Shown: piece by piece, positions 1,505 through 59,828 of the stretch
Numbering within the stretch: the stretch's first letter is position 1
Layout of the letters: each line of letters starts with the position of its first letter
Translations under genes and position numbers: made by a program
Source: Ascidiella aspersa
Lineage: Eukaryota
Length of the DNA stretch: 64,000 nucleotides
NCBI GenBank assembly: GCA_963924565.1
Contig: OZ004615.1
Coordinates: 6,944,001 to 7,008,000, forward strand
Reading direction: 5' to 3'
Notes under the pieces: model-generated
What the model was told of the DNA's origin: nothing
Database searches by the model: none
Seen by the model: only the letters and a program-made list of their open reading frames with translations

Positions 1505-2101
1505 TTAGATCTGTTCCAGCAACTCGAGGGTGGGCTTCTTGACCTCGTCCATGTACGCCTTCTGGTATTCTTCCTTGAGGATAAGCTGCTTCTCAATCTC
1601 CTTGTCAATCACCTCCTGTTTCTCGGCCTGGCGTCTCAGACGCTCCTGGACCTGGTCCTCGCCCTCTTCCATTTCCTGACGCACCAGATCCCGGCCGTAG
1701 AAGACGGTCAGCTCGTTTTTCTCCTCGTTGTTGAAGCGCGCCCAGAAGTAGACGCTCAGCCGCTCGCCGCTGCCGTGCTTCACCACGAAATCGAGAAAGT
1801 CGCGAAAGCGCCGGTCGTCCTTGTCCTCGGCGGCCACGCGCATGCGCACGCCCTTGACCACGTTGATGACCTTGATGATCTCCTCCTCGTTGCCGCCCTC
1901 CACCGACAGGCCGGCGTAGGCCTCGACCGCGAAGGTCTTGTCGTCGTGCGCGTCGATGTCAATCTGCTTGGGCTTAAAGGGAAGCTTCTGCTCTTCGGTC
2001 TCGGCGTGTTTGTTGTGCTTGTGCTTGGCCGGAAGTTTTGCCGGGGTGGCGATCACGCTTCCCGGACAGTTGTGGCGGTGGTTTTCGCTCCAGTCTTCAC
2101 T
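1505..2101 (-). CDS. ANK-MYND gene coding exon 4 (end of MYND, C-terminal domain, coiled-coil-like tail)
   Basis: CCAG acceptor, SEDWSENHRHNC completes MYND, strong GC3 bias, TAA at 1505-1507. Confidence 0.9.
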   Translation of the reverse strand, partial: SEDWSENHRHNCPGSVIATPAKLPAKHKHNKHAETEEQKLPFKPKQIDIDAHDDKTFAVEAYAGLSVEGGNEEEIIKVINVVKGVRMRVAAEDKDDRRFRDFLDFVVKHGSGERLSVYFWARFNNEEKNELTVFYGRDLVRQEMEEGEDQVQERLRRQAEKQEVIDKEIEKQLILKEEYQKAYMDEVKKPTLELLEQI

Positions 2102-4716
2102 CTGGTGGTAAAAACAAGGCAGTTTTATCGTTTGCTTTTATTTTTATCTTGTTGAAAATGCAGTTCGACTAGACCAGTGATTCTTGAACTGTGTGCCTCG
2201 CTGGATTTGTTTAGTGTGCAGCGAGATTTTTTGTATTAATAAAAAACATATCTAATGCTTTCTTGTATTAAAGATGATTAAATTTATAAACTTTATTACA
2301 TTCATTAAAATTCATCAATTTTTTCATCAGAAATTTCGATGGACTACATTTATTCCATCGGAATGCTAACTGACAATTCTGTTCTGTACTTACAGAAGTA
2401 TATATACGCTTGACAGACCGTTTCGGTACCTTCAAAAACACCAACCCTTGTAGTTGTACACGCATACCTGGCACTGTTGGTTGCAGTAGAACGTCACATA
2501 GCATCCAGCGCAGCGCTTGGCCTTCTTAAGGGCCGAGGCGCCGCACTTGGCGCAGCGGGCCGCCTGCCGCTCCTGACGCAGCGTGAACGAACGCAGGCAA
2601 GTGTGGATCAGGCGTCGCGTCTTGTCGTCGTCGGCGAAGTCGTAGGCCGTACGCCCGTCTCTCATGGCGGCACGCGGATCTGCTCCGTGTATTACCAGGG
2701 CTCGCATCGCAGAGCGGTTGCCGCTGGCTGTGGCCAGGTGGAAGGGTGTGGCGGTGGAGTAGGCGCGCTTGTTCACGTCGGCACCACGCTCGATCAGGTT
2801 CAGCAGGTGCTTCTTGTCGATGCCTTTTCTGCAAAAGGACGGGGAACAGAAGTTACAGGACTAACAATGGTATTTGCTTTGTGTCAAAGGGGATCCGAAA
2901 TCGGTTTTTCAAATGACTTTGCTACTGAATACGAGTAAGGCCGATAAACGGAAATCGCAGTAGGGGAGCTTTGCCGTGACGATATTTTACAAAGCAGTAC
3001 AACCCGCTTTACACAAAACAGTTGTATCCTATTGACATTATTGCTTGCTTTTTTTTCTTTCAACAAAAGGACTTCGGTCGCATTCAGCTCGCGTTGATAT
3101 ATTTATAATTTCTCCTATGTTTTGTTGTTATGATTTCCCGTTTATTCTTGAAGATAAATCATGATATTTTTGTATCCAAAAATGACATTGAAACCCCGTA
3201 GTCGAATTATACTGTGAACGGCCTGAAGACAATTGTGTCATATCTAATTAAAAAGCAGTTATCTGATTTCATTGTGAACGTTGTAAAAAAAAAAAAATGC
3301 TTTACACCAGGGGTCACTTAACTACAGCTTGTGGGATAGATCCGTCCACGGCTCCACGGCATTTCCTTAATTGTGAATTAAGACATAGTAGATTTGAAAT
3401 GTTGTCAAATTTTTAAGTTCAACCACAATTTATCAAGGCTCACTACAGTTTTTAATAATCAAGTTAGTAAAGTTCGACAGAAAATTGTTTATCCGGCCCG
3501 CGAACTTTCGGCCTTACAGTCATCCCGTCCTTTCTGAAAAACATTTGATTACCCTTGCTTCAGACCAATAGTCGCAACTCGCCTTTAAATATTTACCTGC
3601 ACGCGACCATCAGGGGCGTGAAGCCTTCCAGCAGTGTGGGGCTCTCCAGCATGGCGTCCCAGTGTAGAAGGCGCTGATAACCTAGCTCGTTTTGGCTTCC
3701 CACCATCCAGTGCAGAGGGGATCTCCCGTACGGGTCCTGCTCGTCCACCGTCCTGTGGATGCGCGTCTCGTCCTTGTAGTTGTCCAGGAAATTATCCATT
3801 ACGGCCCTTGAAAAAAAAATTGACTCCTTTGCCGCCCGGCATTTCGATTTCGTTGCGTTGTGAAAAGACGCCGTTGACTAATAGCGTAAGGGTATAAGAC
3901 TATTTGAAGAAACAACCAAGCTCATTAGATTGTGTTTTGTGACACATACTTCTGGTCGCCAGCAGACAAAATGCAATGTTTTTCTTTTTGATAGACACTG
4001 TGGAAGTACAACGTACCACGTTCGCACATTATGGCATAGGTACAGTGTTTAAAGTAGCAAACGTTGAATAATTTGTTTGCAGTAATGGAATCTTTGTAAG
4101 CGTTAATAATTAGCATGTACCTTAATCTTGCATTGATAAATAACTTAAAGGTAATATAATTTTAACTTTAGGTCGAATTAGGACCGTGTTTGCCCTTTTT
4201 ACAGTTTGTTTTGTTTAAATTTCGTATTTTCTTAGGTTTTAAATGTATTAAACACACAAAATTCTTGGAAAACAACATGGTGAAGTAATCCAAAACTGGC
4301 AGCACCTTTGTGTGTAACACTTTCGCGTCAGCCAAATTCGTTTGAGTAACCTGCTAAAATCGTTAAGAAAGTTTGGCAACACGAAATTCCAATGCGGGTG
4401 TAACGTGTAACTATTAATAGTCGCAGGCGAATTTGCGGCTTTGGACAAATGTTGCAATTAGTTGTTAACCAAAAAAATGGGCATAAAGCAACTATAGTTT
4501 ACCGAATGTCACTTACCTCATTAACGGGTTAGTCTGTTGCGACGCCATGGAAGTCAGCTGGGTGATGTGTGGCTTATACTGCGGGTCCAACGGGTTGTAG
4601 TTATCCAGACCGTCCAAAATGTTTTCGGTCTTAAAGTTCTCCGACTCTCTTTTCCGTTTGAAATCGTACAGGCCGCCATAGCTGGGGTTCGGGTATAGGT
4701 CATAGTAGGTGGTCAT
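1505..4716 (-). CDS. Ankyrin-repeat and MYND zinc-finger protein, 455 aa; join(complement 4716..4517, 3806..3597, 2828..2468, 2101..1505)
   Basis: Four GT-AG exons with matching phases (2,2,0) give 1368 nt ending in TAA. Ankyrin motifs GRSPLHW, GFTPLMVACRKG, GADVN, TPFHLATASGN, GRTAYDFA. Complete MYND motif CAKC..CAGC..YC..CQ|SEDW..H..C split by the last intron. Orthology to a named gene not established. Confidence 0.9.
2468..2828 (-). CDS. ANK-MYND gene coding exon 3 (ankyrin repeats + first part of MYND)
   Basis: TTTTGCAG acceptor, GTATGC donor; GADVNKR...CAKC...CAGC...YCNQQCQ. Confidence 0.92.
3308..3557. mobile_element. Degenerate hAT-type MITE in an ANK-MYND intron
   Basis: Ends CAGGGGTCAC / ATTACCCTTG; flanks CTTTACAC / CTTCAGAC (6/8 TSD). 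Confidence 0.55.
3597..3806 (-). CDS. ANK-MYND gene coding exon 2 (ankyrin repeats)
   Basis: TTTTTTCAAG acceptor, GTAAAT donor, GRSPLHW/GFTPLMVAC. Confidence 0.88.
4517..4716 (-). CDS. ANK-MYND gene coding exon 1 (MTTYYDLYP...NPLMR)
   Basis: ATG at 4716, GTAAGT donor at 4516, phase 2 matches the next exon. Confidence 0.8.
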
Positions 4717-4948
4717 TTTGTGCAAGATTAAATCGGTCCTAGCTGTAAAGATTGCTTGTGTTGGCCATTTATGGAACGGTGTTCTGTAAATTGGCGTTGA
4801 TAAGTTTCGGTTTGATTTTTTTCCCTAATAGTTGAAAAAAGTTAGTTGACTTTTTACCGTTCGGGTATTCAACAAATTACCGCTGCCAGGCTGTTCCTAA
4901 GTTGCTTTCGACAGTAATTCAATACATAAATACTCAGACAGGCAGGCG

Positions 4949-9019: not shown

Positions 9020-12000
9020 GTAACGACTATTCTGGTTTTCTGTTTTCTATAAGTCAGTGGTGTTTTGTTTGCCAAAAAACAAAGATTTTAAAATCACGAA
9101 CAAAGAGAGGGAAGAAGTGCGTTTATTGTTTCAAGTCTGATTGCTAAATAGTGTGAAAATCTTATATATGATCGTTTAAATGTCGCGTTTTTTATTTTAT
9201 TTTTATCTAAATAATAACTTTGTTTTAGTGATTTTTTAATAAAGTTATACAGATCAAGGTAAAAAGTTAATTTGAACACCACAATAGCACTGTTTGTTTT
9301 TACTATCAATGTTGCAATGTATTATAGTTATGTATACAGCGACTCCTGAATTATATACGACCGAAAAACCCAATAAATCAACTTACTGGCCATACTTTTT
9401 TGTTTTTCGCTTTTAAAAGTGCCTTTAGCACGGGGAAGGTGTAAACTTTTTTGCTTGATATCATCATGTTTGCCCCTCTTTGTAATAGCGCGCAATAGGA
9501 CCGTTTTATTGACGTTTTACCAGACGTGGGAAATGATCGCAAGAGCTTAAACTACCGAACGCAGTGCGTTTTATGGCGCACAACTTTGTTCCTACATGTG
9601 ACGAAAATATTTTATTGCAGGTTATTGTGTAGCGAATTACAGTGACGCAATTCAGTCCGTAACAGATCAAACATCACGTTTGGCCAAAAAACAATCGATG
9701 TGAAGTTTCGGATTTCGTTGAACCAGCTATGTGTTTCCTCCGAGCGACCCCCACTAACTCTTTCAGCGTTCTAAAAATACAACAGCCCGCTGACGCGCGG
9801 CGTCGTGTTTAACTAAGATGCCCTATTATGTTGCTCGGTCCCGTGACTTGCACTTGGAAATCGCCTCTCTTCACACCTACCGCTGGTAACATGTACCAGA
9901 CGTGCTCTACGCGGTTGCAAAAGGACTATTTTGTGTCAAGTCGGGACACGTTCATGTTAAAAAGTGTGTTTTTGTCGCTAATGGGCGAGGTCGCTAGAAC
10001 GCTTATTATAGTTGTAACGTCAGAATTTATTGATTACTTTAGTAATGCGCCAGAAACCCCACTTTTCGCACAAACCAATATGGAAACACCATCTAGATCA
10101 GGACTTGCTGAACTTTTGGTCCACCCCCTTTAATTTATTGGAATTTTGGGCCAACCTTTTTTTTTAGTTGAATAAATAGTGCAATCACTATAGGCCTAGA
10201 CGCAACGCGTGTGTAAAATTCACGAAGTAATACTGACGACCCCTAAAACACATTGCGCGACCCCCAGTTTAAAAAGCCCTGATCAAGATTATAAATTGTT
10301 TCTTTGAAACAAGTTTTAAAATACAGTATCAATCGGTAAAGTCTTCCCAAGTTAGCACGGCTTTTAACGCAATTACGTTAAAGATAGATGCTACAATGCA
10401 CTGTCACATAACTAGACATTCAAAGAGTGTCCGAAATAGCAAGCAAACACGTTGCGTTGCCGTAATACAGACTCGCTCTGTTTGTGGCGACCGAATTACG
10501 GAACAAAAGCCCGAGCCATTGGAATTACAGCCCCTGTTGATTCATCCTTCTCGACTAAGGCTTTTGTGCTTTTCTGTAGTCACGCCCTGTGCACCTATAG
10601 CTTAAACACTGGGCAAAGGAAAGGGGACTTTCAAGGTTGATCTGCGTCACGGATCTTTTTCGGTTTCATTGCCTTTTGTGGGACTTTTCGTTTTTTTTAT
10701 TGCGCAAAAATGACTTTAGGATTGATGGAGCGTCTTTGGGCCAATTTGATTTTCATATTTCCAATGGTAAACAGTCTAGCTACACACTAAATCTGAATTA
10801 ATTGTTATGGTCGAAAAGCTTGTTCGCAAGTTATGTTCACCTGGATATAAAAGTAATTAAATGCTCTGAGAACAATAATCGTACAACAGTTCCTACTTGT
10901 CGAATTAGAGCTTCTGCAAAACATTAAACTGTTTTGAACGTTACATCATTCGTTAACATTGAAAAATGGTATGTTACCGATATATTATTTGAACTCCACG
11001 TTGTAAAAGGAAGTAAAAAGTACATCTTTTAGAAGTTATACATCAATATTAGAGGCACCTTAATATATGTTTAAATGTCTTTTTAACGTAATTCATTGAC
11101 ATAGTGATCCTTAACAAACCACCATAACAATTCTGATGCAGCATAAATAGTGTTTTGCTGCTCTTCTGTTGCGATTTATTGACACGATACCCATAAAAGC
11201 ACCAACAATCCAATAAAATCAACTGTTACCTCCCCCTTGTAAAAAGTGCTCTTGGAAAAAAAGTACAGCCTATATGTTGTTTAAACACCCTTTATATGGG
11301 CCATAAAAACGATAGAAAAAAAGTTGTGCTGAAAAGCGAATTGCACTAATTGTTCTATTTGTGCAAAAAATTCTTAATTTTTTTCGCAGGTAAGGCCAAG
11401 GAGTTCGATCCTGATTTTAACGGACCGATCAAGAACAGATCTTGCACCGACATCCTTTGCTGTCTTCTCTTTTTCGTCTTTATTCTCGGCTACATCGTCA
11501 TCGGAATATTCGGTAAGTTTTTAAAACATTAACCATGCTTAGGTACACTATGCAGGGATCTGTAATGTAAATTGATAACGAATTGCAAAGCCAAAAAGGT
11601 CGAGTAGATCGACATGTGACTAAAGACGATACAGTACAAGCTCGTATCGAAACGTCTTAACAATCAAGATGATGTCGATCTACTCGACCTTTTGGCTTTA
11701 ATTCATTATCAACCATGCTTTAAAATCACAGTTTTCCAATCTTGAAGTCAAAACATTTGTGAAAACCGAAATACTTAAACAAACACTTCAATTTTACAGA
11801 ATACCTAAAGGGCCCGCAACTATTTCATTAAACTATAAATCCTAGTTAAAATGATAGACTTTGGAGACCGCTTTAGAAGATTAAGAGACCGCGTACTTCG
11901 TGTGTATGTTAATTTGTGCAGGTATTTGTGTCCAGTAGTCTAAAGTCAAACTTTGTAACTTGTAAGGCATTTTATTAGCGTACCAATGACCCGGTAGTAT

Positions 12001-15000
12001 AGCTTGGACATAAATAAAAGCGCATTTTTGAAAAAGTGATTTTAAACTAACAAGGGTCCTATTTACCGACCTGGTTAGATTTACTAAACTGGATAAAAAA
12101 AATAACGCGCGAAACAGCTGAGCAGGGTGTAATTGTTGTAATTGTTCAGCCACAAGCTTTAAAGTTTTTCATTGGCAGTCGGACTGATTGCACAACTTCA
12201 TTTAACAACTGTTTGAGATTACGTAATTGTTTCTGCCGCGCATGGTTTTTCGTGACGCAGGTGGTACAACCGGAATTTGTGATTGCGTCACAACTTGTAT
12301 TTTTAACACTCTACAAGTGGTTGCCTAACGGTGGGTGCGTAATTACCGGTCAACAAGGTTTAGTGTGATTGTAAGTCTGTTTATTTGTTGCAACGTCAAA
12401 ACAGTCACATATTACCTATTTGGAATGCACAACAAATCGTGGTTTTATCCAATGGTTGTGTTGGGAACACACAATAAAGACGTACGATGCAACGATATCT
12501 AAAGCAGAAAAATCTATAATACCATAGTGTTAAAACCAATGACTTAATAAAGTCAAATGCGCAGTAATATCCACGACAGAATAAAACCTAAACCTGTCCA
12601 AATATGTCCTAAATTCATCGGAATAAAGTCTAAATGAACGAAATAACACGTAAATCTGTATAGGGTGAGGGTATAGGACGATTATTAGGTATCAGTCCTA
12701 TTTTGATCTTAATGTTATTTTAACTTCGGTTTTATGGCCAGAGTTTGTGTTAAAAGAATACCTGTTGTGTTAAATTTTATAAAAAAATTCATCTTTTAAT
12801 TTTAAGTCGTAAATTCATCCAAGTAATAGTCGCACACCGAAAACATTAACAACGTTTTTCTTTCAATATTTGGCGTAACAACAGTTAAATATTATTTTAG
12901 ATAATTGGTATTTTCGTAAAAAGTTATCTAAATTAAGCATGATTTTTAACAGCCTGGCTAAACGGAGACCCTATAATCCTGCTTTACCCAACTGACAACC
13001 AAGGAAGGATTTGTGGAGTTGACTACATCGACCTTAACCTAAAGTAAGTTTTTTTCAACTAACAAATCATGTGGTAATTGTTGTTCAAGTACTGTTTTTT
13101 ACCATCCATTCCGTAATAGGGAGGAGCGACGTTGTTTTTAGTATAGTTGTTGGTAAAAAGTTGTATAAAAGTTTAACAAGAGTCCTAAATGTAAAACCAA
13201 CCCTTGTCTGTCGGGAACGTGAAACGTATGACGCTTCGAAACGCCAGATGTGCTTATATACCCAAGTAATTTTAACCCAAAGTTTTTCGTCCCTGGCAAG
13301 TTGTTTGAACAGCCGATTTACCGTTGCGCGCTCCGATAGGCACTGGTTCGTCGTAAAATCACAATGATGAAGCATTCGACTCCACTAATGTGTATAGAAC
13401 CAACTATTTTATCTCACTCGGAATACATGCGTGTCACCAGTAAGAGGTTGCTGACCAGAACAACACTTTTAATGTTTTTTGCCGGTTTAAAGTTACTCAA
13501 ACAACACTCTAGATCCGAAAGCATAAATTCTTGATGTCGCTGTTATTATTAAAATTAATATTAGTATAATCACAACATAACCGACGCCTATTGACTGTGA
13601 GAATTTGGAACCTAACACAAGCTTTTTGCTCGTCATATTTTTAAGCATAAAGTAAGTTGTCGCCGTTATTATCAAAATTAATATTAGTATAATCACAACA
13701 TAACCGACGCCTATTGACAGTGAGAATTTGGAACCTAACACAAGCTTTTTGCTCGTCATATTTTTAAGCATAAAGTAAGTTGTCGCCGTTATTATCAAAA
13801 TTAAATTAGTATACTCACAACATAACCGACGCTTATTGACTGTGAGAATTTGGAACCTAACACAAGCTTTTTGCTCGTCATATTTTTAAGCATAAAGTAA
13901 GTTGTCGCCGTTATTATCAAAATTAATATTAGTATAATCACAACATAACCGACGCTTATTGACTGTGAGAATTTGGAACCTAACACAAGCTTTTTGCTCG
14001 TCATATTTTTAAGCATAAAGTAAGTTGTCGCCGTTATTATCAAAATTAATATTAGTATAATCACAACATAACCGACGCTTATTGACTGTGAGAATTTGGA
14101 ACCTAACGCAAGCTTTTTTCTTGTCTTTTTTCACACGCAGATCGAAAAATAACCTGTTCTACTTCGACATTACGAAATGCGCAAGCCCGGCCACACTTCT
14201 GAAATTGCAATGTCCGACTACGCAGGTAAGCTGTATTAACTTTATGCTTTATTGCCAACTAAAAATTGGTTGCAAGTGAAAGCTGTTAGTCTTGCGTCCA
14301 TAAAGTGAGACTTGACGGATTGGTCACCTTTTCCTGTATTTGCAACTATTAATTTGGACGAAACACGTATCTTACGTCAACACGTATAGAAAAATCGAAT
14401 TTCCCAAGAGGTTAGCGTTAGTAAAGCTTGGTTTTATTCGGTTTTAACATTGAGGCTTTTGATTTTAACGCTGTTGGTTTGCCTCGTTTTATAGGCAATT
14501 TAATATAGCGAAAGCGTTTTTTACGGTTTCGGGCGTCCGTCCTGAGTAAGAGTTTTTATTCACAACCTCATTTAACAGTGACAAAATGGTTATAAACTAT
14601 TTAAATTTCAGGAACAATTCTCCACTTAGCATACTAGGTACATCTAGAATGAGGATAGGGTGGCCATAATTCCATTATTTTTGTTCACTATATCTTAACC
14701 TATATCCAACAAATACAGAGTATTGGTCAGTGGTTCTCAACCGAGGTGATATTTCTAACGCCTATCTTGCCAAGAGGTATTTTAAATTCCAATTTTGCTC
14801 TATTAGTGAGCTTCTTGATACAATATTTAGTACGATTGGAATGCAGCAAATCAAGAAGGTTTTTTCAACCTTGTGTACAGTTCACGTTCGCTGTTTCGAT
14901 TTCGTTTATAACCACGTTACAGTAAACCTCTTCGCGAAAACCCTATAGTCAACGTTTTATAATTTATGTTGAGTGCGGAAAGCCAAAAAAAGCTTAGGTA

Positions 15001-18000
15001 ACACTGGTATAGGCCAACTGTTTCGTTGGTAGCTTTTTTGAAGCCACCTATAGTATATCTTACTGGTTCTCAACCGGGGTGCCGCAGCACCCTTGGGTGC
15101 CATTTCTAATGCTTAATGGTGCCGAGAGATATTTGAGAATCTTTACGAATCTGATTTTTGCTCAACTGTTACAACTTTTTGTGTAAGATTAGAGCGGAAT
15201 AAATCCAATTATAAACTTCCTACGTTGTGTAGAGTTGATGTGTGTTGTTTCATTTCCGTTTATTGTGATATTCTAGTGCAGGGTGGTCCAAGGTTGACTG
15301 CATCGCGGCCCACAATATTTCTTGCATATTCTTTGCGGGCCACCTAAAGTGTTACATGCGTGCCAGGAGCCGATCAATAATTTTCGTTTGGTCGGGGCAT
15401 GAATTGTTTAAAGATGACGCCACAAAGCATCGACAAAAAGTAACGTCTAGAGCCCACAAAAGTCAATAAAGTTAAAATTTTTAAGGACCTCGTCTGTCCA
15501 CGAATCAAAGAATAAAGTTGTTTTCAGCACCTAGGGGACTGTTTCTAAGAAGTTTATAGGTAAAAATAAAGTTAAAATTTACAATAAAGTTAAATTTTTT
15601 TAATAAAGTCAAAATTTGTCAAATTATGGCTTTTGACAAAGTTTTTGTGTTTCTTGAGAGTAATTTTTGTAAAAATCGTCGTGAAAGCATTGTAAATCAG
15701 GAACTGCGCCACAATTAAACCATATGAACCTATAAAAGCGGGAAATATGTCACAATGCCCACTTGAATCAGCAGTAACTTTTATCGCAAATTGATCATTT
15801 TTTTTTATTTATTGTTAAGTATTTAAATAATTCTTATAAAACACTTCATCTTGATAAACGTGGTCTTTTCGAAGATCAACAGTTTGGATTTTAGGAATAG
15901 CCTACTGACATTCGGTAATACAAAAATGCCTAAGCAGTAAGCTATCTAAATCCATCGCCCAAAAAAACGACACACTTTTCATATTCCATAGGCTAAAACA
16001 CCTTGACTTTGCGACAAAATATTATGTTTGGGTAACTGGCATCAATTCAAAGAAGAACTGTGGCCTCTACAAACAAGCAATTTCGTTAGGCTAAAATACA
16101 AAATAAAATTTGATAAAAATAAAGTTAAAATTTTTTTTTTTTAGGGTTAAAATAAAAATGGCCCTAGTAACGTCGAAAAACACATAGGCTCTCGAAATTT
16201 TCTACTACCGTCTCCTCTAACTTGTGAGCAAATGAAATCGAATAATTATTATGAGACTGGCAAAATGGTGCGCGCAAAGCGCGAAAAACTAGATCAATTT
16301 GGCTGAAAGTTTTCAACTAGATCAATTTGGCTGAAAAGACATCATGAAACGGTCCGATCGTTAGCCTTTAGTCATGGTAAAAACAAAAATTCTCAGAAGC
16401 GCGATATATTTTATTGTTTATTTACTTTAAAGTAGCAAAAATAGTAATTTATCTGGGGCTTTTTATATTATGTTTATATTAAAAAGACGGAAAACAAAAT
16501 GCCAGTATATAATTATTTAGGTTTGCAAAAAGCCTTTTTAGAAAGTTGCATATAGAACGTACTGCGACTTTCAAACTGGTCTAACACATATCAAAAATTA
16601 GGTGTTCTTACCACCCCCTGGACACGAATTTGATGAGCGATAGTAAACTGGTTTATTTAACGGTGTATAGCCGAAAAAATGTAATCATAGACAAACAATT
16701 GCAGTATGCTTGCTGATCTTAAGTTATTTTAGTTTCTTTGATTAAACCCTCAACTGTGCGCATTACAATAATGAATTTAACAGTGCTTCGCGGGCCACGA
16801 ACAATGATGTCGCGGGCCACATCTGGCCCGCCGGCCTGGGTTTGGACCACCCTGTTCTAGTGAATTACCTACGGAAAAAAATTGTAGGGGTGCCGCAATC
16901 TATTTATTATTTCTGATGGGTGTCGCTAGCCATAAAAGGCTGAGAAACACTGGTATATCTCTTCACAACTTCAACCATTGGTTCGCTGAGTGGCGGCGGA
17001 ACCAGTTTTTACCTTGTTTTTTGACGATATTCGTTCGATGCAGATCTGCGTTCAGACGTGCCCTGCCGAGAACTGGGCCTACTTCCCCGACATCGCCAAG
17101 TTTGAAGCGGCCAAAGCTGCCAACCTGAACGCAGTCAACACGAGTGCACAACGGGAGGCTATCGCCCTGTCAGCCGAGACCACCTTCTATCTGAACTTCA
17201 CCAAGTACATCTGCTCCTATGGCTACAACGTGCGCGCGGAGTGGGTTAACAACAGCAGAGTGAGTAAATCCTTACGCAACACACACAAAAATATTTATTA
17301 TAGTAATCAATGTGTTTTTTCGGTGAGTTATCTTATCTAAGAAGTTTCTCGATTGGACTTTTTTGTACTTTTATAGATGAACAAAAAGTAAATTTATAAC
17401 GGGGAATGACAACCTTTTAGTGACAGTAAACCGCATTGTACGTATTTTGTCGGTGGTGGTTTAACTCATTTTGTTTAAATGTGGTCCATGTAGATTTGAA
17501 AAATTTAAATTTAGTTACTTGACGTGCTCCCCCCTGAATCTGTATCTTAGTTGGTAAAGCGACGTTCCCAGTATTCCAGGAGGTTGTAAGTTCGAACCTC
17601 ACCACATGCTGGTTATTTTCTAGCCTGGCCTTTCTTGCACTATAATCCTGAATATATGCTGACTGATTACGGTAGGACTTTTCGAAGGCATCCGGTGGAC
17701 TATATAATGCGTGCCGTTGGCCAGTACGCCTCCCTATATGGGATTGTGCGCCTCCAGAGAGGCATTACACAGAATGCCCTTTATGTATATGTACGTTTCA
17801 GTTAGTTAGCGAAATTCGAAAATGCGAAATAATATAAGAATAGTACGTCCAATAAACAAGTTGGTTTGTATGTTTAAATTAATATTGGATCACTAACATA
17901 TCCACATGAAACTTTAAAAATCAGTTACGCAGGAATAAATGGCCATTAGGGATAAATAAAACCATTTCGGGAAGTGTTTAACTTTTTAAAACGTTTTGAA

Positions 18001-21000
18001 CGTAGACCCCCGAAGAATCGGTGCGCTTCGGACACTGCGCCCCCTACTACCTGGAAATGACCCCTGTGGTGAGCCGGTGCATCCCGAAAGTGATAAAGGA
18101 CGCCGCCCAATTTACGGCGTCGCTCGTCGACGAAAACGGAACCACGATAAATCAAGTCCTTACGGTATGTGTTGTAATACAGTATTTCTTAATCAGTTGA
18201 ATGGTTCACCACAGGGTGAATAAATTTTTTGCAGGGGTGAACCAACCAAAAGCGGTGAATAAGGCTGAACCGTCAGAAATCGATGATAGTCCGTTGTTTT
18301 TCTAAACTTTGTGACTGTGTTTTGTGCTTTTGTAGCTTAATATCTCTGGACTCGAGAAATTGTAAATTTGCAATTATAAAACTTAGCTTGAGTTAATCTT
18401 AACAAAAATCGAAACAGCCTAAGTCATTTCGTGCTGTTATATATAGATGAATTTTATCATATCATGAGACAAGGGTGAATTAAATCTGGAGAAGGATGCT
18501 AGGAGTTAACAAAATTAAAAAAGTCTAAGAAGCACTGTTCTAATATATAGTGCCCTGTATGCGATATGAAATCATAAAGCAAACAAAAGAGAACTCGGAC
18601 CACCGGCAAGAGCTTTTGTGTTGTTGTTTCAAATGATTTCCGATACTTGACTATTTACTCGGTTCCCGATAATCGATATTTTGGACTAAAAGTTTCGCGA
18701 TCCGATCTGATAACAAGTGACGTCTTTACTATGCACTATAACAAGCGAAATAAATGAAGTTAAAAGTTTTTAGGGGTTATTAGGTTAAAATTTGTTTTAG
18801 CGCGGTGGTTTTCAACCTGGGGGTCGCGACCACCGGGTGGGTCGTTTGTATTTTTTTCTCTGGGGGTCGCGAACAATTAAATACCTATCACTATTACAAG
18901 AATGCTAATTAATTACCATAAAACATTATCTGTAATGATATTAGTGAATATTGTCAACAGTGGATGTTTAAATAGTGAGCAGCCAGGAAGCAAGTTGCGA
19001 GATAGATTATTATTTCAACAGTGTAAGCTTACTATACTTAGGTTGTTACCTAAGTCATTTCGTGCTGTTATATATAGATGAATGTTATCACATCATGAGA
19101 CAAGGGTGAATTTAATCTGGAGATAGATACTAGAAGTGAACAAAATTTAAAAAAAGTCAAAAAAACATCTGTAATGATATTAGTGAATATTGTCAACAGT
19201 GGATGTTTAAATAATGAGCAGCCAGGAAGCAAGTTGCGACATAGATTATTATTTCAACAGTGTAAGCTTACTATTGATTTGCCGGTATCAAACATATAGC
19301 TAGCCTAGCCTGAGGAAATTTCAAAAGCGACTGTTAAGAGCAAGTTAAAATTTGCTAGACATAAAAAAACTTTTTTTATTGCTATTTCACATGGAATAAG
19401 AGCATTTTAATAGCTTTATTCACACAGAATAAAGTTACCGAGGGTTAACGAGCAGCATTTTTTTGCTCGGTTTTCAAAGGGCAAGAGAAATACTGCTCGT
19501 TATATCAAAGTCAGTTTAGTAGCGAAAAAATGAATTTATCCAGCCCGTAAAACGTTAGCGAGCATTGGGTTATGACCCTCTTGTTTAGCAGCTTTCTACT
19601 CTTTGGATGGGGGTTGTTTGTTACATTTGGTTGTTAAAATGGTGGGCGGTTAAAAAAATGTTGAAAAGCACTGCTTTAGCGTTAAGAGGTTTGGGTATTT
19701 CCAGGTGAACAACCTACTGCTTGTTGATAAATATCACCCAAGTATCGGACGACAATGCTATACATGGCACCAGGTTTTTCACGTCGATCCCTTAATTATC
19801 GGACATCTCTGGTGTAAAATGTAACTTTTAAAATCGAGTTTTCGTCCAAGTATACTGAATTAAGCTTTTTATCGCTACAAGCATTTGTTATCGTTAAAAA
19901 ACACCCTACTCAGTTAACAAAGAGCACCATGCGGTCACAGTCTATTGATATATGCTTTCAGACTAAAAAAAAAAATTAGTTCGCAAAATAGGCTGTCCGC
20001 TTTAAACCAAAAACTCAAAGAAACTCAACTAAGACGCCCAAAGAGTTTTTTTTTTATTGATTTAATGACAATCAGGTGGCAGTCAAGTAACAACGCGTAA
20101 TGACTCAATATTGGACACTAAATAATTTACATCAAAATCTACGAGAAGCTAAAACAGTGATGCACAGCAGTAAATAAAGTGAGAGATTCTAAGAAATAGG
20201 AAAAAAAGAGTTCTATACACATCGTTCTATTTTGCAAATACGCAAACCTTGTGTATTTTACCTCGCCTAGGATGCTAACAACAATCCGATTACCGGCGCT
20301 GAACTGGTGTCGGGAACCGACGGGGTGCAGCTCTACCTCCAAGCACGTGAGATCGCTGACAAGATATTTTCCGATCTTACTACCTCCTGGTACTGGCTCC
20401 TCATGTAAGTGTAAAAAAGTTTTCGTTGCTACAAAATCGCCTTGGTTGCGTGTTACAGGGAGGTTCCGTTAACAGAAGGGGATCGATTTGTAAAAGCGTG
20501 TTTAAAGTTTAGCGAACTTTTATTGTAACTGTTTTTTTAAATAATAAAAATATCAGGAGTACATCCGTTCGTGTAGGTATTAAAAGGACTTTAACGAAAT
20601 ATGTTCTTGTAAGGGTGTTAGGGAACTTGCCACTCCTAAACTGGCATAACCAAAAACAAAGAGCTAATTATCAAAATAGCGCCACACTGGTTTACTCTTC
20701 ATATGCCGGCGTTGAATGTTTTGAGGGATCTCACTAACCAACCAATGATTGTCAGAGGTTGTGGGAGGGAGTTTATTGAAAGTTGTATGTCAGCTGAAGT
20801 CTTCATCAGTAATATATAGCATAAAAAACACAAGTGACAGTTGCAACAACTTAGTCCCTTATTTGAAATTAATTCAATAATAAATGTTAGTGCTAATAAT
20901 CAACAAAACAAAAATGAAAACCTAAACTAACACAGCCAAAAAAAGTAGCTGTTAACACCAACAAATTCACGTCTAAAATGATGGACGTACACGACACGTT

Positions 21001-24000
21001 TTTGCTCTAAGCAAACCTCTCCACTAGGAGCAGTGTTTAATAAAAAAAAACACCAAAAGGAAGTCCCCTAAGCAAGGATCTGTAATGTAGGTTGATAATA
21101 AATTGCAAAGCGAAAAAGTTCGACTAGATCGACATCACATTTACCTCAAGATGATGTCGATCTATTCCTTTTTTTGGCTTTGCGCCTAAGTGCTTAATAC
21201 AAAATATATGTTAACGTTCTACTGGTTTAAATGAAACCATCAAAACGCCTCCCCTAATATTCCAATCTTGGCAACTATCTCCACCCCGAAATAACCAAAC
21301 TTTTTCCAACGCAGACTGCTGGCTGTCGCGGCGGTCGTGGCCTTCTTATGGATCGTGGTGATGCGTTGGGTGGCCGGCATCATGGTCTGGGCCACCCTTA
21401 TCACCATTGTGGCCGCCCTGTCATTTGGCGTCTGGTACTGCGTTGACGAGTATCTCGTAAGTTGAGTAGTTGTCTATTGAATGAGTGAACGCCAATCTGT
21501 ACGCAGAATAAATTGCGTTTGTTAATAAACATAATAGCAGAAGATCGGGCGAAGCTTTTCTCACGTTAAATTTGGTGTAATTTACAACACTAGCATTAGG
21601 ACTCATGGTCGAAGTAAAGATTTTTTTTAATACGAAATCGTGTAACACTTTCAAAAGGATTGAAGGACCTATTTGATTGAGCAAATGTAAAATACACTAA
21701 TTTCTGAAAAGTGACGCAAGGTATGACAAAAAATGTTAAACTGTTCTGCCGTTATTTATTTGACTTTAAAAATATAGCGCCAGATATCATAAAAATGTTA
21801 AACTGTTTTGACTTTTTTATTGACTATAAGAATATAGCGCAAGATATATGATCAAAAAATGTTAAACTGTTTTGACGTTATTTTTTTTACTTTAAAAATA
21901 TAACGCAAGATATTACAAAATGCTAAAATATTTTGACGTTATTTTTTTTGGCCTCAAAAAAAGTAAAAATGTTTTTAAAACTATACAAAAACGCCATTAC
22001 TTAAAGAATGCGAAAACCTCCATTTTTTAAGGTGCTTTTATAGTAATTTTAAGACGGCTTTAAACCATCTCATTTTTATTTTCTATTCACAGCGACTTCT
22101 TAACGTGCCGGGAGCCAACCAGACCCTGATATCGGTAGGCTTCACCACAAGCCTGGACACCTACCTCAGCCTCACTGAAACTTGGCTCGCCTTCTGTAAG
22201 TGTGACTGCAAAAGCAATTGGCGTTATATTATTTTTGTTTCCTCAAAATCTAAGCGATCAATGTGCATACACTGTGTCTTGTAATCAGACACCCAGATGG
22301 CCAATATAATTGTTTTCCTTTCCTATTTTGCGTAACGCATGCCGACTTAGTGCATTTTCAGTTAAAATTGTTTTTAAATTCGTTGTAAACCCGCGCGCGG
22401 CCAGTTCTACGAGATATTGACAAACGATAAGATTTATTTATATAACAGGAACAATAGTCTAAAACAAATCATATCCGGTGATATTCGTTCACTTTCTATT
22501 CCAGTAAACTATGCAAAGCGAGAAAAATTGTAAATATATACGCCATTTAAACGATTTCGGGATAATTTTTTTGCACGAAATCCGTCCTCATTGACATGAT
22601 TCGTTATTTTAATCGAATTGCACTCTTCTTCTCTTCCGCAGCCATCATCCTTGGTGTGGTGGACCTCATCATCATCCTGATGATCTTGTTCCTCCGCAAA
22701 AGGATCCAGATCGCGATCCAAATCATCCGACAGGCGAGCAAGTGAGTTGGCAAAAGAAAATATTTTGGGAAAGGGAGTGTCGCTATGTTAGCAATGTCCA
22801 TTCAACTTTCATAAATGTTTAACTTGGAAGCATGGACGTCGGGTTTCGGGTGCTTAGGGTGCTCCGAGCACACTAACATAAATTTTGGGTGTTCAGCCCC
22901 CATAAAACAATGGTAAATCTTGGGAAATACTGTATACTGTATATTTTGTTTGATGTGTGCGATTAAGGACTATTATTTTTCATGGCGCAATTTAGCACAA
23001 TAGCTGGTTAGCAAATAAACGTCTACTTCTTAGTACTTTGAGGTATTTATACGAACGTTTACAGCTATATCATAAAACCTTTGTTTGTTAAAACGAAACC
23101 GATTGTACCATTAAAGGGCTTTCCCAGCCATGGGATTCGCAATCTTTGTTAACTTTTTTTTAGCGAGAATTTAATGGCGTAATATATAAGCACCCTTGTA
23201 AAAAACAAAAGTCGGCGACAATATGCTTAAAGATTGTTTTACTATAATATCCCAATCTTAGGAACCTAAGCCATAATCGATCATTAACATAATATTATTT
23301 GTAAACACACTTTGCTGCACATAGAGCCATCGGCTACATGATATCGACCCTCTTCTACCCGCTGGTCACCTTTGTGTTGGTTGTGATCGTGGTGGCCTTC
23401 TGGGGCGCCACGGCCCTTTTCCTGGCCTCGACGGGGGATCCCCAATACCAGATCTCGTCCCCCAACATTAGCATCAACGGCACCTCCTGCAACATAACGG
23501 TGAGTGTTTTAACCTAAGGCTGTTTAGTGAACGGAGAAACCCACTGTTGTAAACAAGTCATTTTACCAGTGTTTTTGCATTTGTAAAAACCTACGTTCTT
23601 TCAGACTTAAGTCCAAGTCTAATCATTTTGACAAAATAACAAGTCAAGTCATAATTATGGCAAGTCAATTTCAAGTCACGTTCTTGTCATAAAACTTGAA
23701 CGTTAAAATATTAAAATTAGTCCAAATATGAGCAGTAACCCAAGACTTGAGTCAAGGCAGGTCATTTCAAAACCGTGACAAGTCAAGTCCTTACAACACT
23801 GGAAAAACCTTTGCTGATGTTCGGTGTGTTACATGAGCTTTGTCGTTCACGTCGGGTTGCCTTTGTTTTCTTTATGTACAGCGTTTTAACCTTGAGAATC
23901 CCTACTAAAACGATATAAAAAGTGATACCCTGTTGTCCTAAATCTCCTAGGAACCCTTTTCAAACGCCTTGCGAGATTTTTTGTTTTCTCTTTTTAAAAA

Positions 24001-27000
24001 ATTGGCCTTATTTTTAAGAAAAAATAATGTGCTATGAGTTAAGTCACAATTTTGATTAAAAATGTATTGTTGATCGTGTTTCTCTTTCATAGCACATATA
24101 CATTGGGTCTGTGGCATCTTTTACAAATTTAGCGCATATTATTCAGTCGCGGTAATTTTGTCAACCTGCGTTTATTTCAGCTTTGGAGCAATTCCAGTCA
24201 CGAGTTCTACGACGACAATTCGACCAAGTGCATCTTCACCAAATACGGAGGAACTTCCATGTAAGTTGCCAACTATAACGGCTTTTATTTGACAAGAAAC
24301 CTTAAGTATGGTTTAGATCAGCGGTTCTCAACCGCCGGTCCGCATCAACTTTCCTGCCGATCCGCCAAATATATTACCATTTCATACCTCAATTGTAAAA
24401 TGCAAGACATTGAAGGCTTTTATCAAATTTAGAACTTTTTCCAATTCCGTAATTTGCAGAATTGTGGCATAACATAGAGATGATGGTCTAGTTTAGACTT
24501 TATTAAACGTCACAATGCTGCAAGTGTTGTGCCCAGCTGTTTAAAAGTGGGTTACAGCTCGTTAAAGTCTTAAAATTGAAGACCAGTTGTATGTAAAAAC
24601 TAAGAAGTCTTTTAGTTGATTACTTTTTTGTAATTACATTTTGGTTTGATTTTTGAAGGTCCACCGGTCCGCAAAATTTGTTTTGAAATTTTACCGGTCC
24701 GTAAGCTAAAAAGGTTGAGAACCACTGGTTTAGATCATTGGTCGGCAAACGTTTTTGCCGCGGCCCAAAATACTCTTTCCAGATCTTTTGAAGGCCTATC
24801 ACGTGAAACCACGAAAACGGGGAAGGACCCAGGATGTTTGTTTTGGTTGGGGTATGCAAATTTTCAGAATGATGTCACAAACGAGGTCATGATACAATTG
24901 TCATAACTTACATAGCGCTTTTGGGCCGAAAAGATTCAAGTAAAAGAAATAAATAAAAGTTCGCACAAGGCGCGTAAAAAAGTTGTTTTCCATAGTTAAA
25001 CTTGGGATAAATGTATAGTTTAAGGAGGTCTAGTGGAGGTTCTGTGATGCAGCAATATGCCAAGATAAAAAATTGAGCACATCAAGGAAATGCAGTAGGA
25101 ATGCAGAACAATTAATGTGCGGCTATCATGCGGCCACCACTTTATGATAACACTATAAACTGTTGAAAAATATAAAAATTACTTCACCAATTGTTACACA
25201 CATTACCGGACACGTTGTAAAAAGGGATTACATTGAATTTTTTGAAGTGTTTTTTATCTTGTAGACCTAATAAAACATTTGTGCCCGACAAACATTTCTG
25301 CCCGACAGGCCCCTTAAAACGTAATAGAATTTTATATAAAAAATAATATTATTTTAAGCAGCAAAATACATCGACTGTCCATTCCGAAAACCGGGGTATA
25401 TATGTATTGGGCTATAGCATAACTATATTGTGATGTAATGACACACACATTGACATTAAAGCCTATGGATCATGGAAACACGACAGGAAACGATATTGTC
25501 TGACACTTCAACACAAATGGGTGTTGCAATTATCATCGAGTGCTATTCATCATCGATTTATATTTCGCGTTGCATTGTCTACCGACTTGCGACTCTGTCT
25601 ATTGAATCGTTATTCAAATTCCGACGCTTTTGTTAAAATTTATATTGCTCTGTGGCCCAAGGAAAACCGCAGCAGACCACATTAAGGCTAACAATCGAGC
25701 ACTATATCGAGACATAGATGCGCACATATATAAATCCAAGCCAGCTGAAGCGATATCATTGGCTTCACTTTAACAGCATTTCGTGCGTTTTACTTTGCAA
25801 TGTCGATTTTATCATTTTGCTTTTTGACAATTTTATCGTTTGGAGTTCTACTTATTTGTAGGTTTATGAATCTCGTACATTTCCGAGAAATTTCTAAAAC
25901 CTAAAAATCTTTAAAAAAACAGATATCACTCGAATTATTACTTGAACATCTAAAAAAGGCACAGCGATATAAAACCGACGTCAGTCTCAAATTAGAAATG
26001 TTTTTTCCTTAATAGTTTGTATTTTCTGTTACATTTCTTCGCTTTTGTGAACTTACAATGATTTGGTTTGCCAGATTCCACCAGAACGTGATCTGGCTGC
26101 AAGTGGTCGAGGCCTTCGGAATGCTTTGGATAATGAACTGGGTTTTGGCCCTCGGTCAGTGCACGCTGGCAGGTGAGCGAGATGAAATGCGGAATTGAAT
26201 AACCGCTAGACGGTGCTAGAGATACAAATTGCCCGCTCGTTAAAAGGAACGATTGTTATTCGTACACCCCATTGCTTAGCTTAAAGTTTCAAAACTGGGG
26301 TTTGCGTAACGAGTTTAAAGGGTCGCGAGTAATAATACGAAGTGTTACATCTATAAAAGTGTTATTTTTTCTGTTTAATATGCTAATGGTAAACCCAATG
26401 CAAAACACAACTCTTAAAATGCGGGTTACTTTAACCAATGCGTGGCAAAACAGAGAACGAGAAATGTTATGTTTTGAACAATTAAACCTAAGTGGTTCAC
26501 GGAACATTTTAATAAATTAAAAGGGGTCGCAGACAAACTCTTCTGCAAAATACATTTTTCAATTTGCTGAAAATCGACCCACATAAACAAACAAGCACAA
26601 TGTACCGACTATAACAGTGTTTCTTAACCATTTTAGCGCTGGTACCCTTTGACCTTTCATGAAATTTTCTCGTACCCCCCCCTGTCTACAATGGTCGACG
26701 AAAGAATATAAAATTGTCACAATACGTATCAAAATTAGTGTATTTATAACTTAGGTGTTGAATGCTTTCATTAAAAACAGTCTAGTAAGTTCAACAATAT
26801 TTACAACACACAACAATCAGTCAATTTACTAATGGCATTTTTGTTGTTGCTTTTCGTAAGTCGAGCATTTTTCTAAAATATGCATAATTAGCGCATAATT
26901 TCACGCTGCATGTCGTACCCCCTGCTTTGGTGCTTCGTGCCACTTAGGGGTACACGTACCCCTGGTTAAGAACCCCTGGACTACAGTGTCTGCTATAATA

Positions 27001-30000
27001 AGAATCCTAATAAAATAACCTTGTTACACAGGAGCGTTTGCTTCGTACTACTGGGCCTTCAAGAAGCCAGCCGACCTTCCTTACTTGCCACTCTACTCCG
27101 CATTCGGAAGAGCTCTGAGGTGAGTTCGCAGTTGCCATTGAAATCTAATTCGCCACTTTAAAAGCAATTTGCAAAAAATATTTTGATTCAAAGAAGCACT
27201 TTTTTCCAGTTTTGGTTCAAGACTTTACTGAGGTTGTTTTAAAAGTCCAATTAAACAAGCTATATCTTCCAAGCACAAGTTATTTTGTTAAAAAAATAAT
27301 AATTTTCGCTTAATGATCTGGCATCGTTCTTGGATCCGTTTGAAAATAAACTATCTGGGGAAAAATTAATTCTGTCATAAACCAACTTTTCTTTTAAAGA
27401 ATGGAAAAAAGGGCGTAAAACTAAAAAAAAAGAAGAAAGTAACTTCTAAGACAACGTGTTTTTCTACAAAGTCGCTTGCCCTTTTGCTCAACTATCTGTT
27501 CTGTCCGATTATGTGTGTGTTTTTTACCACTTTTACTTCAAAATACCCCAAAATTACCCCGTATTTTTGTCCCAGATACCACACTGGCTCGCTAGCCTTT
27601 GGCGCCCTGATCATCGCCATCGTTCAAATAATCCGACTGCTTCTGGAGTATGCAGACCACAAGCTGAAGGGAACCGAAAACAAGGTCGCCAAGTTCATCC
27701 TGAAGTGCCTGAAGTGCTGCTTCTGGTGCCTCGAGAAGTTTCTTAAGTTTCTCAACCGGAACGCATACATCATGGTGAGTGGGTTGGAGGTCAAGAGATC
27801 CCTTCTAAAAAAATAAATTGTTTTTGCTTCTCGGGTTTTCTGAAATACGGTGCTTTTCTTTTGACTTTACCCGTTTCCGAATTGAGTTTACGAGCTAATG
27901 TCTTGTTTGAAATGATGCAGCTCTTTAGGAAAAAACTGTACCAACTTTGGTTCACGATTCATAGGTGGAGAAACACTGGTTTAAGCGTTACTGTTTTAGG
28001 GTTTTTCCAAATGTCGACAAATGTGAGTTTGGATCGAACCCGAATTCCAGATTTTCTTACCCGTTTCCTAACAACGACACACGCTTGTTATGTATGTGAC
28101 CAGGTGTTTCCGGTCATCCTGCTTTGCAACTTTTTTTGGCTTTTTCTTATTTTTGACCTAATAAATTGAGTTTCACGACGTTGCCTTACTTGTTATCGAT
28201 AGAATATTATAATGGAATCGCAATGGAATCCACCCGGTTCGAAAAGCAGAGAATGACCACAATGGGTCTATGGAAATCATGGTGAATCGCGGCTTGTGTC
28301 ACCCTATGACCGAGTAGGATTCCCGGTGTATCAAGTGTAATTTGCAACTGCGTTTTAGATTAAACGGCTCCTTCGAAAAGGCGCTTCTTTTTCCGGATTT
28401 TTATCGCCCTTACCTACTATTTAACAGACTGACAATGTCCATTGCCCACTCAAAAAGCAGCCTGGTCCGTTCGACACCTGTTTTGCCCTTGGTCATGAAA
28501 ACTGGGTTAAAAAAAGTAGCCTGCTTCCTTTCAAACAACAAATTGAAGCCTGTCTGTTATCACAATAACGTCTTTTGACAAGCACGTTAATTAGTTTCGG
28601 TTCTGCTTTGTGCAGGGGTTTTCCATCTTGGTTTAAAAATAGATGGCGACCGCAGACGCAACCGTCATAGATTTTTTAAACGGAGCGCTGGCGAAATTTT
28701 GGGCACGGGTTGGAAACCTTAGCTCAAATTGCTATTTGCACGCATCTTATCGTAATTCGCAATCGCTTACATTCATGCCGTCTGGTTTTGGGGGTTTAAG
28801 TTTCGGTATTATGATAAACGTTGGGCTGCTGGGTGTATTTATCTTGAAACGCGATCCGTAAAAGCCACGACCGCCAAAAATTCAACACTGGCGACACGTT
28901 TTTTAATCTTCGGTTCTTTTTTGTTAATCTCACAACAAATATGTGATTTTTTGGCGATTGCATTGACAAGTCACAAAACTAAGGCGAATCAAATAGACAA
29001 GAAAACGCAAAACCCGAGCCGTATTGCGTGCAACAAGCCCAAACTTGTTAACACAATTTGCATACCTTTCGTGCTCTCTCGGGAATTTTCCATTCCTGTG
29101 GCGCTTATTCAAGAACTGGCATATACCTTTAAAACGTGCGAAACAAATATGCGTTGTTTAAGAATACGTTCGTTGAACCTTCTCCCTTTTCCGATTGGCG
29201 GAAAACGTTGTCGAAAATGTGGGCGTGTCGAATCGTTTTGGGGCGTTTTTTACTCGCGCTTGCAACAGTGCAAGCACCGGTACGCGAAAACCGCATGGTC
29301 GATGTAAAGCGGTAAATATTGATTTACAGATCTTGATGAATCTGATCATCCTTTACTGGAATTTAATCTATTCATTGCTTGGCTAACGTCTTATCATTGG
29401 ACGTCTCGAATTCACACAATGATTAATCTTCTACAAATTCCCTGATTTTAACCGTGGACAAGCATTGTGTGGATAGTATAGATTTAAAAAATCCGATAAT
29501 TTAATAAAGGTGTGGGTTAGCACTTGGCTAAAGTTTGGTTAGGTGGTCGGGTAAAGCATTGGTTTGGCCATCAAGAACCCATTTCCGCAAAAGATCAAAG
29601 CCGCATAAGATCAAAGCCGCATTTATCAAATGCGCCGCGCTCATTAGGTTAGTTAAATCGACGAATACAGACCAAGTGCGCTTTCCCGTTCTTGCGTTGG
29701 ATAGTACTAATCTCCGTACCTTATCCTCTTGCTTATGATGCTTATCTCAATTGCTCGTATTTTGGGGGCTTGCAGAGTCCTTATAAGGTCCGGCGTTCGC
29801 TGCAACCGCCTGATTCTATCATCCCTTTGCGGTATACAGGCTTGTCTTAAGGGGCTCGGCTAACTGCTTGGCAATCTGTGAAGATTTCGCGATAAAATTG
29901 CGGGGATTTTCTACCGTGCTGGGGGCATTTTGTACGGTTTGATTTTCGGCGGGCCCATTTTCTGGTTGGGGTGCTTGCGAATTGCCTGAAAGCAATTTAG

Positions 30001-59141: not shown

Positions 59142-59828
59142 TTTGGTCGTGTGTTTATTAAACGTTTTCCTGAAAGAAAATCGACACGACGTTTAGAGAA
59201 ATATCCACAGTAGGTATATCACAATGACAAAACGGTAATCCAGTTGTAATGCTAGTGCTGGTACTTAACTACAAGCAGACTCAATACATAGGCCATATTG
59301 CTTTTAAATCAGCACTTGAGTAGCCACGCTTTATAGTTAACTAGCTTAAACTGTTCTAATAACAGTTAAACTCTTTGGAACACTATATACGGATCTGTTC
59401 ATAAGTTTAATGGTAAAACTCTTATTTATGTACTATCAGTTACCAGTACAAAAGCATGACTTGTAAACTGTGCAGCTGCGTTTCTTTAAAACCGTCAAAA
59501 CAAGCTGCTTTCTCTAACAAGCTTATCGAGAGACTGAAACAACTCGGGCACTGCCGTTGCGAGATAACCTTCTTGGCGTTAAGTCACGAAGAGTTATCTC
59601 CTGAAATATGCCGCTCGATATGGCATTTGCCACTGCCTTGCCAAGAGGCCATTTTTTCCTTTTCCACTTGGCATTCTGAAGCCTTCTTCTCGGACGACCT
59701 TCGCGCCACTTGTATTGATCGCTGGCAAGGCTATTCTCTGCTTGCCTATTTCTGCGTCCGCCACTCGAAGCGAGGCCGAGCGCTATTGATCGTTCGACCC
59801 GCTTAATCCCTCCACAAAAAACGAGCAC

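Follow-up and report, generated by a model that had tools for sequence, protein, structure and literature searches.

The SLC44A gene and the repeat in its third intron

The window, the whole stretch of 64,000 nucleotides of Ascidiella aspersa DNA that was analysed, carries a choline transporter-like gene of the SLC44A2/4/5 type, described here by a hand-built model of 19 coding exons (Table 1). With intron 3 removed whole, the model has an open frame and specifies a protein of 760 aa that is 76.6% identical (575/751) to protein P0001 of Phallusia mammillata, itself a match to Pfam PF04515, 70–72% identical to the Ciona proteins and 39–51% identical to the aligned non-tunicate ones. When exon 2 was used as a query, the top matches were ascidian choline transporter-like proteins, with that of Phallusia mammillata at 93%; a homologue search with exon 5 gave no match among 51 candidates. 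Internal exons measure 80–216 nt, and all 21 introns of this gene and its neighbour are at least 366 nt long, a set that cannot exclude a class of short introns elsewhere in the genome. Intron 15 (27775–40908) spans 13.1 kb against 446–2,818 nt for the other 17 introns and could, at a guess, house regulatory DNA of neighbouring genes, and intron 6 (18418–19274) holds two local duplications, of 105 nt and 116 nt, that are 91–96% identical.

The neighbour is an ankyrin and MYND-finger gene on the minus strand (about 1505–4720; four exons, 456 aa), the first intron of which ends AAG at 3807. Two further minus-strand ORFs were seen, one at 58647–59192 that matches the IER family weakly, at E 0.0023 and short of the curated cut-off, and one of 284 codons at 53052–53906, Ser/Thr-rich, in a GC-rich stretch and with no Pfam match. 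Two families of dispersed repeats, some copies of which are inverted, occupy 14719–16953, 24310–24730 and 41665–41970, and 11543–11699, 21063–21181 and 38651–38833, respectively; both are presumably non-autonomous DNA elements.

Intron 3 contains a tandem array, placed by Tandem Repeats Finder at 13535–14125 with a period of 123, 4.8 copies and 97% matches, and homology to the unit reaches back to 13519. It is arranged head-to-tail, lies in an intron at a splice boundary and repeats consensus splice signals, all of them features of the F7 IVS7 type of repeat. The motif CATAAA followed by GTAAGT occurs four times in the window, each time in the array, and the branch motif CCTAAC is present in all five units (13611, 13734, 13856, 13979 and 14102). 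The branch A, at 13615, 13738, 13860 and 13983 in the internal acceptors, lies 30 nt 5' of each internal AAG and 34 nt 5' of the real CAG, and each of these acceptors is the first AG past one that is too near the branch A. A sequence-only reading of this DNA had described the CATAAA motifs as candidate microexons separated by GT–AG spacers of 116–117 nt, with the last partial unit providing the CCTAAC of the exon-4 acceptor, and this layout was confirmed, the branch A in question being at 14106. The reported identity of the array donor to that of exon 3 also holds, and covers 11 nt (−4 to +7), as does the arithmetic of a 6-nt exon in a phase 2 intron: from zero to four inclusions the frame is kept, and each inclusion adds Asn-Ile. 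The statement that every unit is complete must be narrowed. Four junctions do show the full series of CCTAAC, tract, AAG, CATAAA and GTAAGT, but the first copy of the 6-mer (13522–13527) has its AAG with no tract before it and no donor behind it, so that the donor accompanies four of the five copies.

In the unit alignment the donor block of this first unit, U0, differs at 5 of 7 columns, and U0 provides the first junction with its branch point and tract. Of about 24 tract positions, 5 differ between the internal acceptors and that of exon 4, and the internal tract ends TTAAG. The last 6 nt of exon 3 agree with the candidate exon at five of six positions, compared with 0–3 for the other 17 exon ends. 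The candidate is at most 27 nt long and preserves the frame, two features of functional (nSR100/eMIC-type) microexons; use of an AAG without its own donor would lead to a stop at codon 89. A search for the unit as a dispersed element gave no other match better than E 0.07 within the window, and a comparison with Rfam at E up to 1 was negative. An ORF of 130 aa on the minus strand over the array had no Pfam match and was taken as a by-product of the 41-codon period.

Table 1. Coordinates of the SLC44A gene, intron 3 and the elements of the array (positions in the window)
Feature	Position	Strand	Remarks
SLC44A2/4/5-like choline transporter-like gene	8977–43982	+	19 coding exons; open frame; orthologue identity
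Exon 3	12953–13043	+	91 nt; phase 2 end; exon model
Intron 3	13044–14140	+	1,097 nt; GTAAGT to CAG; phase 2
Exon 4	14141–14225	+	85 nt; exon model
Unit U0, 5' edge copy	13519–13642	+	AAG and 6-mer at start; 7-nt block instead of donor
Internal acceptor 1	13611–13645	+	CCTAAC, branch A 13615; 17 pyrimidines in 21 nt; AAG
Candidate 6-nt exon 1	13646–13651	+	donor at 13652
Spacer 1	13652–13768	+	117 nt, GT to AAG
Candidate 6-nt exon 2	13769–13774	+	motif occurrence
Spacer 2	13775–13890	+	116 nt; private 1-nt deletion and one substitution
Candidate 6-nt exon 3	13891–13896	+	motif occurrence
Spacer 3	13897–14013	+	117 nt
Candidate 6-nt exon 4	14014–14019	+	motif occurrence
Last spacer	14020–14140	+	121 nt; array donor; branch point (A 14106), tract and CAG are the real ones
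Competing host exon, acceptor k to donor k+1	13646–13774	+	129 nt; stop at codon 89 of 760
Further host exons	13769–13896, 13891–14019	+	128 nt and 129 nt; same early stop

Neighbouring units also define larger exons, which the sequence-only reading overlooked and which compete with the 6-nt interpretation. At 128 or 129 nt they fall within the size range of the real exons, and all six multi-unit pairings of an acceptor with a donor bring in the stop at codon 89, with 15 introns downstream of it; the pairing of acceptor 4 with the exon-4 donor gives an exon of 212 nt that stops at the same codon. A donor at +6 together with a downstream donor (hosts of 128, 129 and 212 nt) is the layout of cryptic microexons that are repressed by the exon junction complex (EJC), but the host exons of that class are annotated and included, and here all of them stop at codon 89. 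Exon definition would favour the stop-carrying exons of 128/129 nt over the 6-nt exon, which on the model of Blazquez et al. would be the leak product of a two-step route.

Unit history and the origin of the donor

The two edge copies, U0 at the 5' end and U4 at the 3' end, differ in the 7-nt donor block, at two more columns near the start, at one column in the 66-nt core and at five in the tract, a concentration in the edges relative to the core with p=0.004. The middle units U1–U3 start as U4 does and end as U0 does; at column 70, U1 follows U0 while U2 and U3 follow U4, and U3 and U4 differ at one core column. This pattern fits a history of one duplication followed by unequal exchanges, with only three private changes since. 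Within the donor block the differences are too clustered for point drift (p between 3e-5 and 5e-3), so a single complex event would have created the donor or removed it. The array has copies of the real branch point and tract, as is typical of intron gain by tandem duplication.

The end of exon 3, reached by a template switch, is a plausible source of the array donor. An exact match as long as 11 nt turned up for 33 of 1,500 random blocks within 1 kb, for none of 56 pairs of a decoy and a real donor and for none of 28 pairs of real donors, and the local alignment score of array donor and exon-3 donor was reached by 3 of 771 windows, figures to be read in the knowledge that the test was chosen after the match had been seen. 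Against such an origin, five other exact 11-nt matches to the unit occur in the window (E=3). Several older origins for the array were tried and rejected. For a degenerate exon-4 acceptor copy lying 5' of the array, 130/196 and 39/572 null windows were as good. Duplication of the whole intron is unsupported because the 5' part of intron 3 is not homologous to the unit (14/59 null windows as good). An older exon ending at the first copy of the 6-mer could begin at any of five open in-frame AGs, but the scores of the two nearest are poor and that copy has no donor.

How often such a layout might arise was simulated by letting duplications end in the tracts of the other 17 introns, with intron 3 left out. 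An AG near the junction appeared in 31,292 of 73,746 trials, and an AG with an in-frame, stop-free GTRAG in 33, although these trials are not independent because the 33 come from only two donor sites. With intron 3 included the count was 837/78,084, driven by the array itself, and base composition leads one to expect an in-frame GTRAG, given the AG, in 0.3–1.7% of cases. The four array copies count as a single event, in which the duplication itself accounts for the branch point and tract. It would follow that the layout is uncommon per event and to be expected now and then across a genome with very many introns.

Signal strength, orthologues and the choice between explanations

Scores for acceptors and donors are rough, the matrices resting on 18–21 sites. 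The array donor scores the same as that of exon 3 (8.97 each), and in branch point and tract the array equals the real exon-4 acceptor, the score of which (12.9) is among the highest of 18. The combination of CTRAY with at least 17 pyrimidines in 21 nt, as found at the array acceptors, occurs at 1/18 real acceptors and 3/1,430 decoy AGs; taken alone, the candidate tract beats or equals 4 of 21 real ones. Each of the 21 real acceptors outscores the acceptor core of the array (−5 to −3 and +1), which is equalled or bettered by 1,213 of 1,459 decoy AGs. Among the 21, C stands at −5 in 14, T at −4 in one and A at −3 in one, and the candidate has T, T and A. Acceptors of SLC44A comprise 14 CAG, 4 TAG and no AAG, and the canonical human order is reported as CAG > UAG > AAG > GAG (PMC11802449). 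An AAG acceptor is possible in this genome, since one is used, after nine T, in the neighbouring ankyrin/MYND gene (1/21, judged from frame continuity). Across the acceptors of both genes, position −5 is C in 14/21 and position −4 a purine in 15/21, which suggests that this genome prefers C-R-Y-A-G acceptors.

Seven other GTAAGT motifs lie in the 32 kb of SLC44A introns, with scores of 7.1–10.7 against 9.7 for that of the array, the nearest being 176 nt 5' of a real acceptor, and these equally strong decoys apparently go unused. They are not depleted (7 on the sense and 7 on the antisense strand), and neither are AG+3n+GTRAG patterns (9 sense, 13 antisense). The exon 1/2 junction recreates a donor with a score of 9.5, and exon 16 has a donor-like site at +13 (40909–40930; score 7.6), the use of which would shift the frame; both must be mostly ignored, because the conserved protein requires it. 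Exon 2 starts with GTAAG (11390–11395), and the donor rebuilt at its junction with exon 1 scores above the median real donor. This exon of 123 nt is itself a candidate RS-exon, and skipping it would keep the frame but remove most of the first helix.

A hairpin that would mask the donor is predicted in U2–U4, but 51–164 of 200 shuffles fold as well (z-scores −0.58 to +0.88) and the idea was rejected; tract and donor accessibility in the array are within the range of real sites. Strong branch points and tracts with UGC near the acceptor are a feature of microexons. All three are present at the array acceptors, the branch point and tract by inheritance from the real acceptor, and 4 of 18 ordinary acceptors also have a TGC in the zone where the array has it, 19 nt before the acceptor end. 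There are only two YCAY motifs per unit. Three of the five differences between the internal and real tracts place a purine where the real tract has T; selection for a weaker internal tract was considered and set aside, as the direction of change needs an outgroup.

Fourteen tunicate sequences were compared at the loop in question (Phallusia, Ciona intestinalis, eight C. savignyi models, Styela, Clavelina and two further). Thirteen could be scored, the remaining gene model being off pattern, and all 13 have the skipped length of 16 residues; in a whole-protein alignment the form with intron 3 skipped is ungapped relative to the tunicate orthologues. Asn-Ile is inserted in none of the 13 at the protein level, so the conservation typical of microexons was not seen, and these sequences give no sign of the insert being ancestral. 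A search of representative sequences gave as its best new match one that aligns 59 to 59 residues over the junction, with no net insert. Exons of 6 nt are often missed by annotation pipelines, and absence from orthologues is for this reason weak evidence against a tissue-restricted or lineage-specific exon. Loop length is 12–14 residues in ten of ten non-tunicate sequences, and human CTL1 has six more residues at this loop. AlphaFold predicts P0001 with a mean pLDDT of 79.9, and in that model the junction falls in coil at 87–91 (block pLDDT 78), past the first helix at 35–61, in a loop that we take to be extracellular. No N-glycosylation sequon is gained by Asn-Ile, and the protein would probably tolerate the insert.

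Substantial use of the microexon is the main rival to a silent array, though we regard it as unlikely. It would mean that an intron and a microexon are being gained at present: the last spacer of 121 nt would be spliced by intron definition, consuming the real CAG and forcing the use of an upstream AAG, and a sizeable share of the mRNA would carry one to four Asn-Ile pairs, tolerated because the frame is kept and not because they are regulated. In the last spacer the donor fits the consensus, the branch motif is perfect and a strong tract leads to CAG; the frame survives n=1–4, and the site is in coil in a loop that varies in length across the family. There are also precedents in the potato RdRp intron, reported to have been gained by duplication across an intron/exon boundary (PMC4974935), and in C. 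elegans, where short flanking introns release microexons from PRP-40, although those introns are of 49–58 nt (PMC8378409). Against this stand the off-consensus acceptor core, the equal decoy donors that are ignored, the lack of any real intron under 366 nt and a loop length invariant in 13/13 scorable tunicate sequences. Intron gain by tandem duplication in progress, as the sequence-only reading put it, is thereby sustained as to the duplication origin, and the birth of a latent exon and intron is a fair description; its functional side fails to find support, as there is no insert in orthologues, the acceptor core is the weakest part and equal donors are ignored elsewhere in the gene. The spacers could alternatively be cut out first, leaving a remainder with stacked 6-mers to be removed from 13044 to the real CAG and the mRNA unchanged. 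The three internal spacers do have a donor, branch point, tract and AG, and the final product would be the conserved skipped form, but nested removal needs the weak AAG core and nothing selects for it, and we think it doubtful. It would not be recursion of the ratchet type, since the exon-3 junction does not regenerate a donor, and the earlier suggestion of stepwise splice points in that sense can be dropped, as 6 nt lie between AG and GT and would be left behind at each step.

Copy number might instead tune the gene downwards, with more units giving more of the 128/129-nt stop exons and less SLC44A mRNA. The uniform stop at codon 89 in the six multi-unit pairs and the 212-nt exon, and sizes that suit exon definition, are in keeping with such a sink; it demands frequent use of AAG acceptors, and is very unlikely. 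There is similarly little to be expected of a regulated and selected microexon, whether an amplified older neural one or an adaptive array, tunable in copy number like the P exons of avian troponin T. The likeness of the 6-mer to the end of exon 3, the position of the TGC and the donor's being kept in the four copies with an acceptor and absent from the one without could be cited for it, but orthologues lack the insert, TGC is as common as stated at ordinary acceptors, YCAY is sparse, no sequon is gained and whole-intron duplication is unsupported. That the copy number is an assembly artefact is scarcely credible: the units are near-identical, U3 and U4 especially, yet U1 and U2 have private changes and column 70 divides the units in order.

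We consider it fairly probable that the array is a young intronic minisatellite with mostly silent, latent splice signals, with minor leakage to decay-bound or +Asn-Ile transcripts possible. Silence is supported by the orthologues, the weak acceptor core, the ignored decoy donors, the intron lengths, published precedents and the unit history; the strength of the donor, branch point and tract, the short spacers and the rarity of the layout under plain duplication speak against it. As the sequence of the units shows, about 123 nt of the 3' end of intron 3 were duplicated, taking in the real branch point and the greater part of the tract; the duplication stopped short of the CAG, and the copied tract therefore abuts AAG. 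A GTAAGT 6 nt past the AAG in the 3' copy may then have been copied from the end of exon 3, or else lost from the 5' copy, and unequal exchange between the edge copies, to judge from the diagnostic columns, would have given rise to the three middle units, each a chimera. Direct joining of 13043 to 14141 would be the main product, through exon definition across exons 3 and 4. The off-consensus AAG acceptors would be used seldom. In those cases the exon would most likely run on to the donor of the next unit, measure 128/129 nt and bring in an early stop that marks the transcript for decay; only where the repression of junction-proximal donors is incomplete would the +6 donor be chosen and a minor product with Asn-Ile appear. 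Real microexon use of some kind is improbable but deserves to be taken seriously, because the signals are strong, the spacers short and the layout as scarce as the 33/73,746 of the simulation. A bolder version, which we hold to be a long shot, is that a template switch put the exon-3 donor into an intron-end duplication and made a working 6-nt exon in one step, that unequal exchange multiplied it, that repeat number sets zero to four Asn-Ile in the loop while the EJC chooses between microexon and poison host, and that the array has been caught at birth as a segregating repeat.

Comparison with known systems

In the literature searched on microexons, tunicates, splice-site VNTRs and intron gain, most subscription papers being outside the search, the matches listed held no account of this locus or of the exact form of the array. 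The 37-bp VNTR of intron 7 of human F7 has repeated donors that are identical to the authentic one and reported as functional but normally silent (PMC1557585). Both repeats are minisatellites at an exon/intron edge that repeat an authentic splice site, but the F7 VNTR, as described, repeats only the donor, while the unit studied here has a branch point, tract, AG and in-frame donor and lies at the acceptor end. Duplication of the 3' end of an intron, passing on branch site and tract, is common to the array, potato RdRp (PMC4974935) and ATP2A1 (PMC3265369). In potato the duplicated stretch extends into the exon and carries the 3' splice site with it, and a new intron is reported there (PMC4974935), whereas the array copy stops short of CAG. 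Its AAG is a product of the junction, there are four junctions, and the splicing is a candidate only. CBS 844ins68 is reported to duplicate the acceptor. As described, it is a single copy and has no microexon (PMC1334203).

Blazquez et al. (2018; PMC6224609) reported that a donor 6 nt into a human exon, in a KPNA1 reporter, is repressed if the construct is unspliced, that it comes into use when eIF4A3 is knocked down or the construct is pre-spliced, and that removal of the downstream donor led to skipping and not to microexon use. Broad conservation in deuterostomes is inferred in the same paper, which has the Ciona genome among its resources. The evidence for EJC repression comes from human cells. 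RS-exons and the array both have a donor within 15 nt of the acceptor and a second donor that defines a host, but the hosts of RS-exons are annotated coding exons and that of the array is a cryptic, stop-containing exon made by the repeat (PMC6224609). If silent, the array is an ordinary intronic repeat, yet also a natural version of the published reporter (donor at +6, second donor 129 nt on) that could test junction-proximal donor repression in tunicates. If spliced, it would mean that a microexon can arise without a regulator and multiply by repeat expansion, with a bearing on intron gain and microexon birth.

Very short exons also occur in runs in other genes. Avian fast troponin T has up to seven small P exons that encode repeated motifs; these are proven by transcripts and developmentally regulated, whereas the exons of the array are candidates (PMC7581897). 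The P exons serve as the model for the sequence-only reading's idea of a microexon array. The micro-exon genes of Schistosoma also have such runs, but are whole genes for secreted proteins, with exons of 3–81 nt and long introns, and the array consists of identical repeats in one intron of a conserved gene (PMC10526429). The array is best placed as a variant of the known repeat-borne splice sites, because each unit holds an acceptor together with an in-frame donor.
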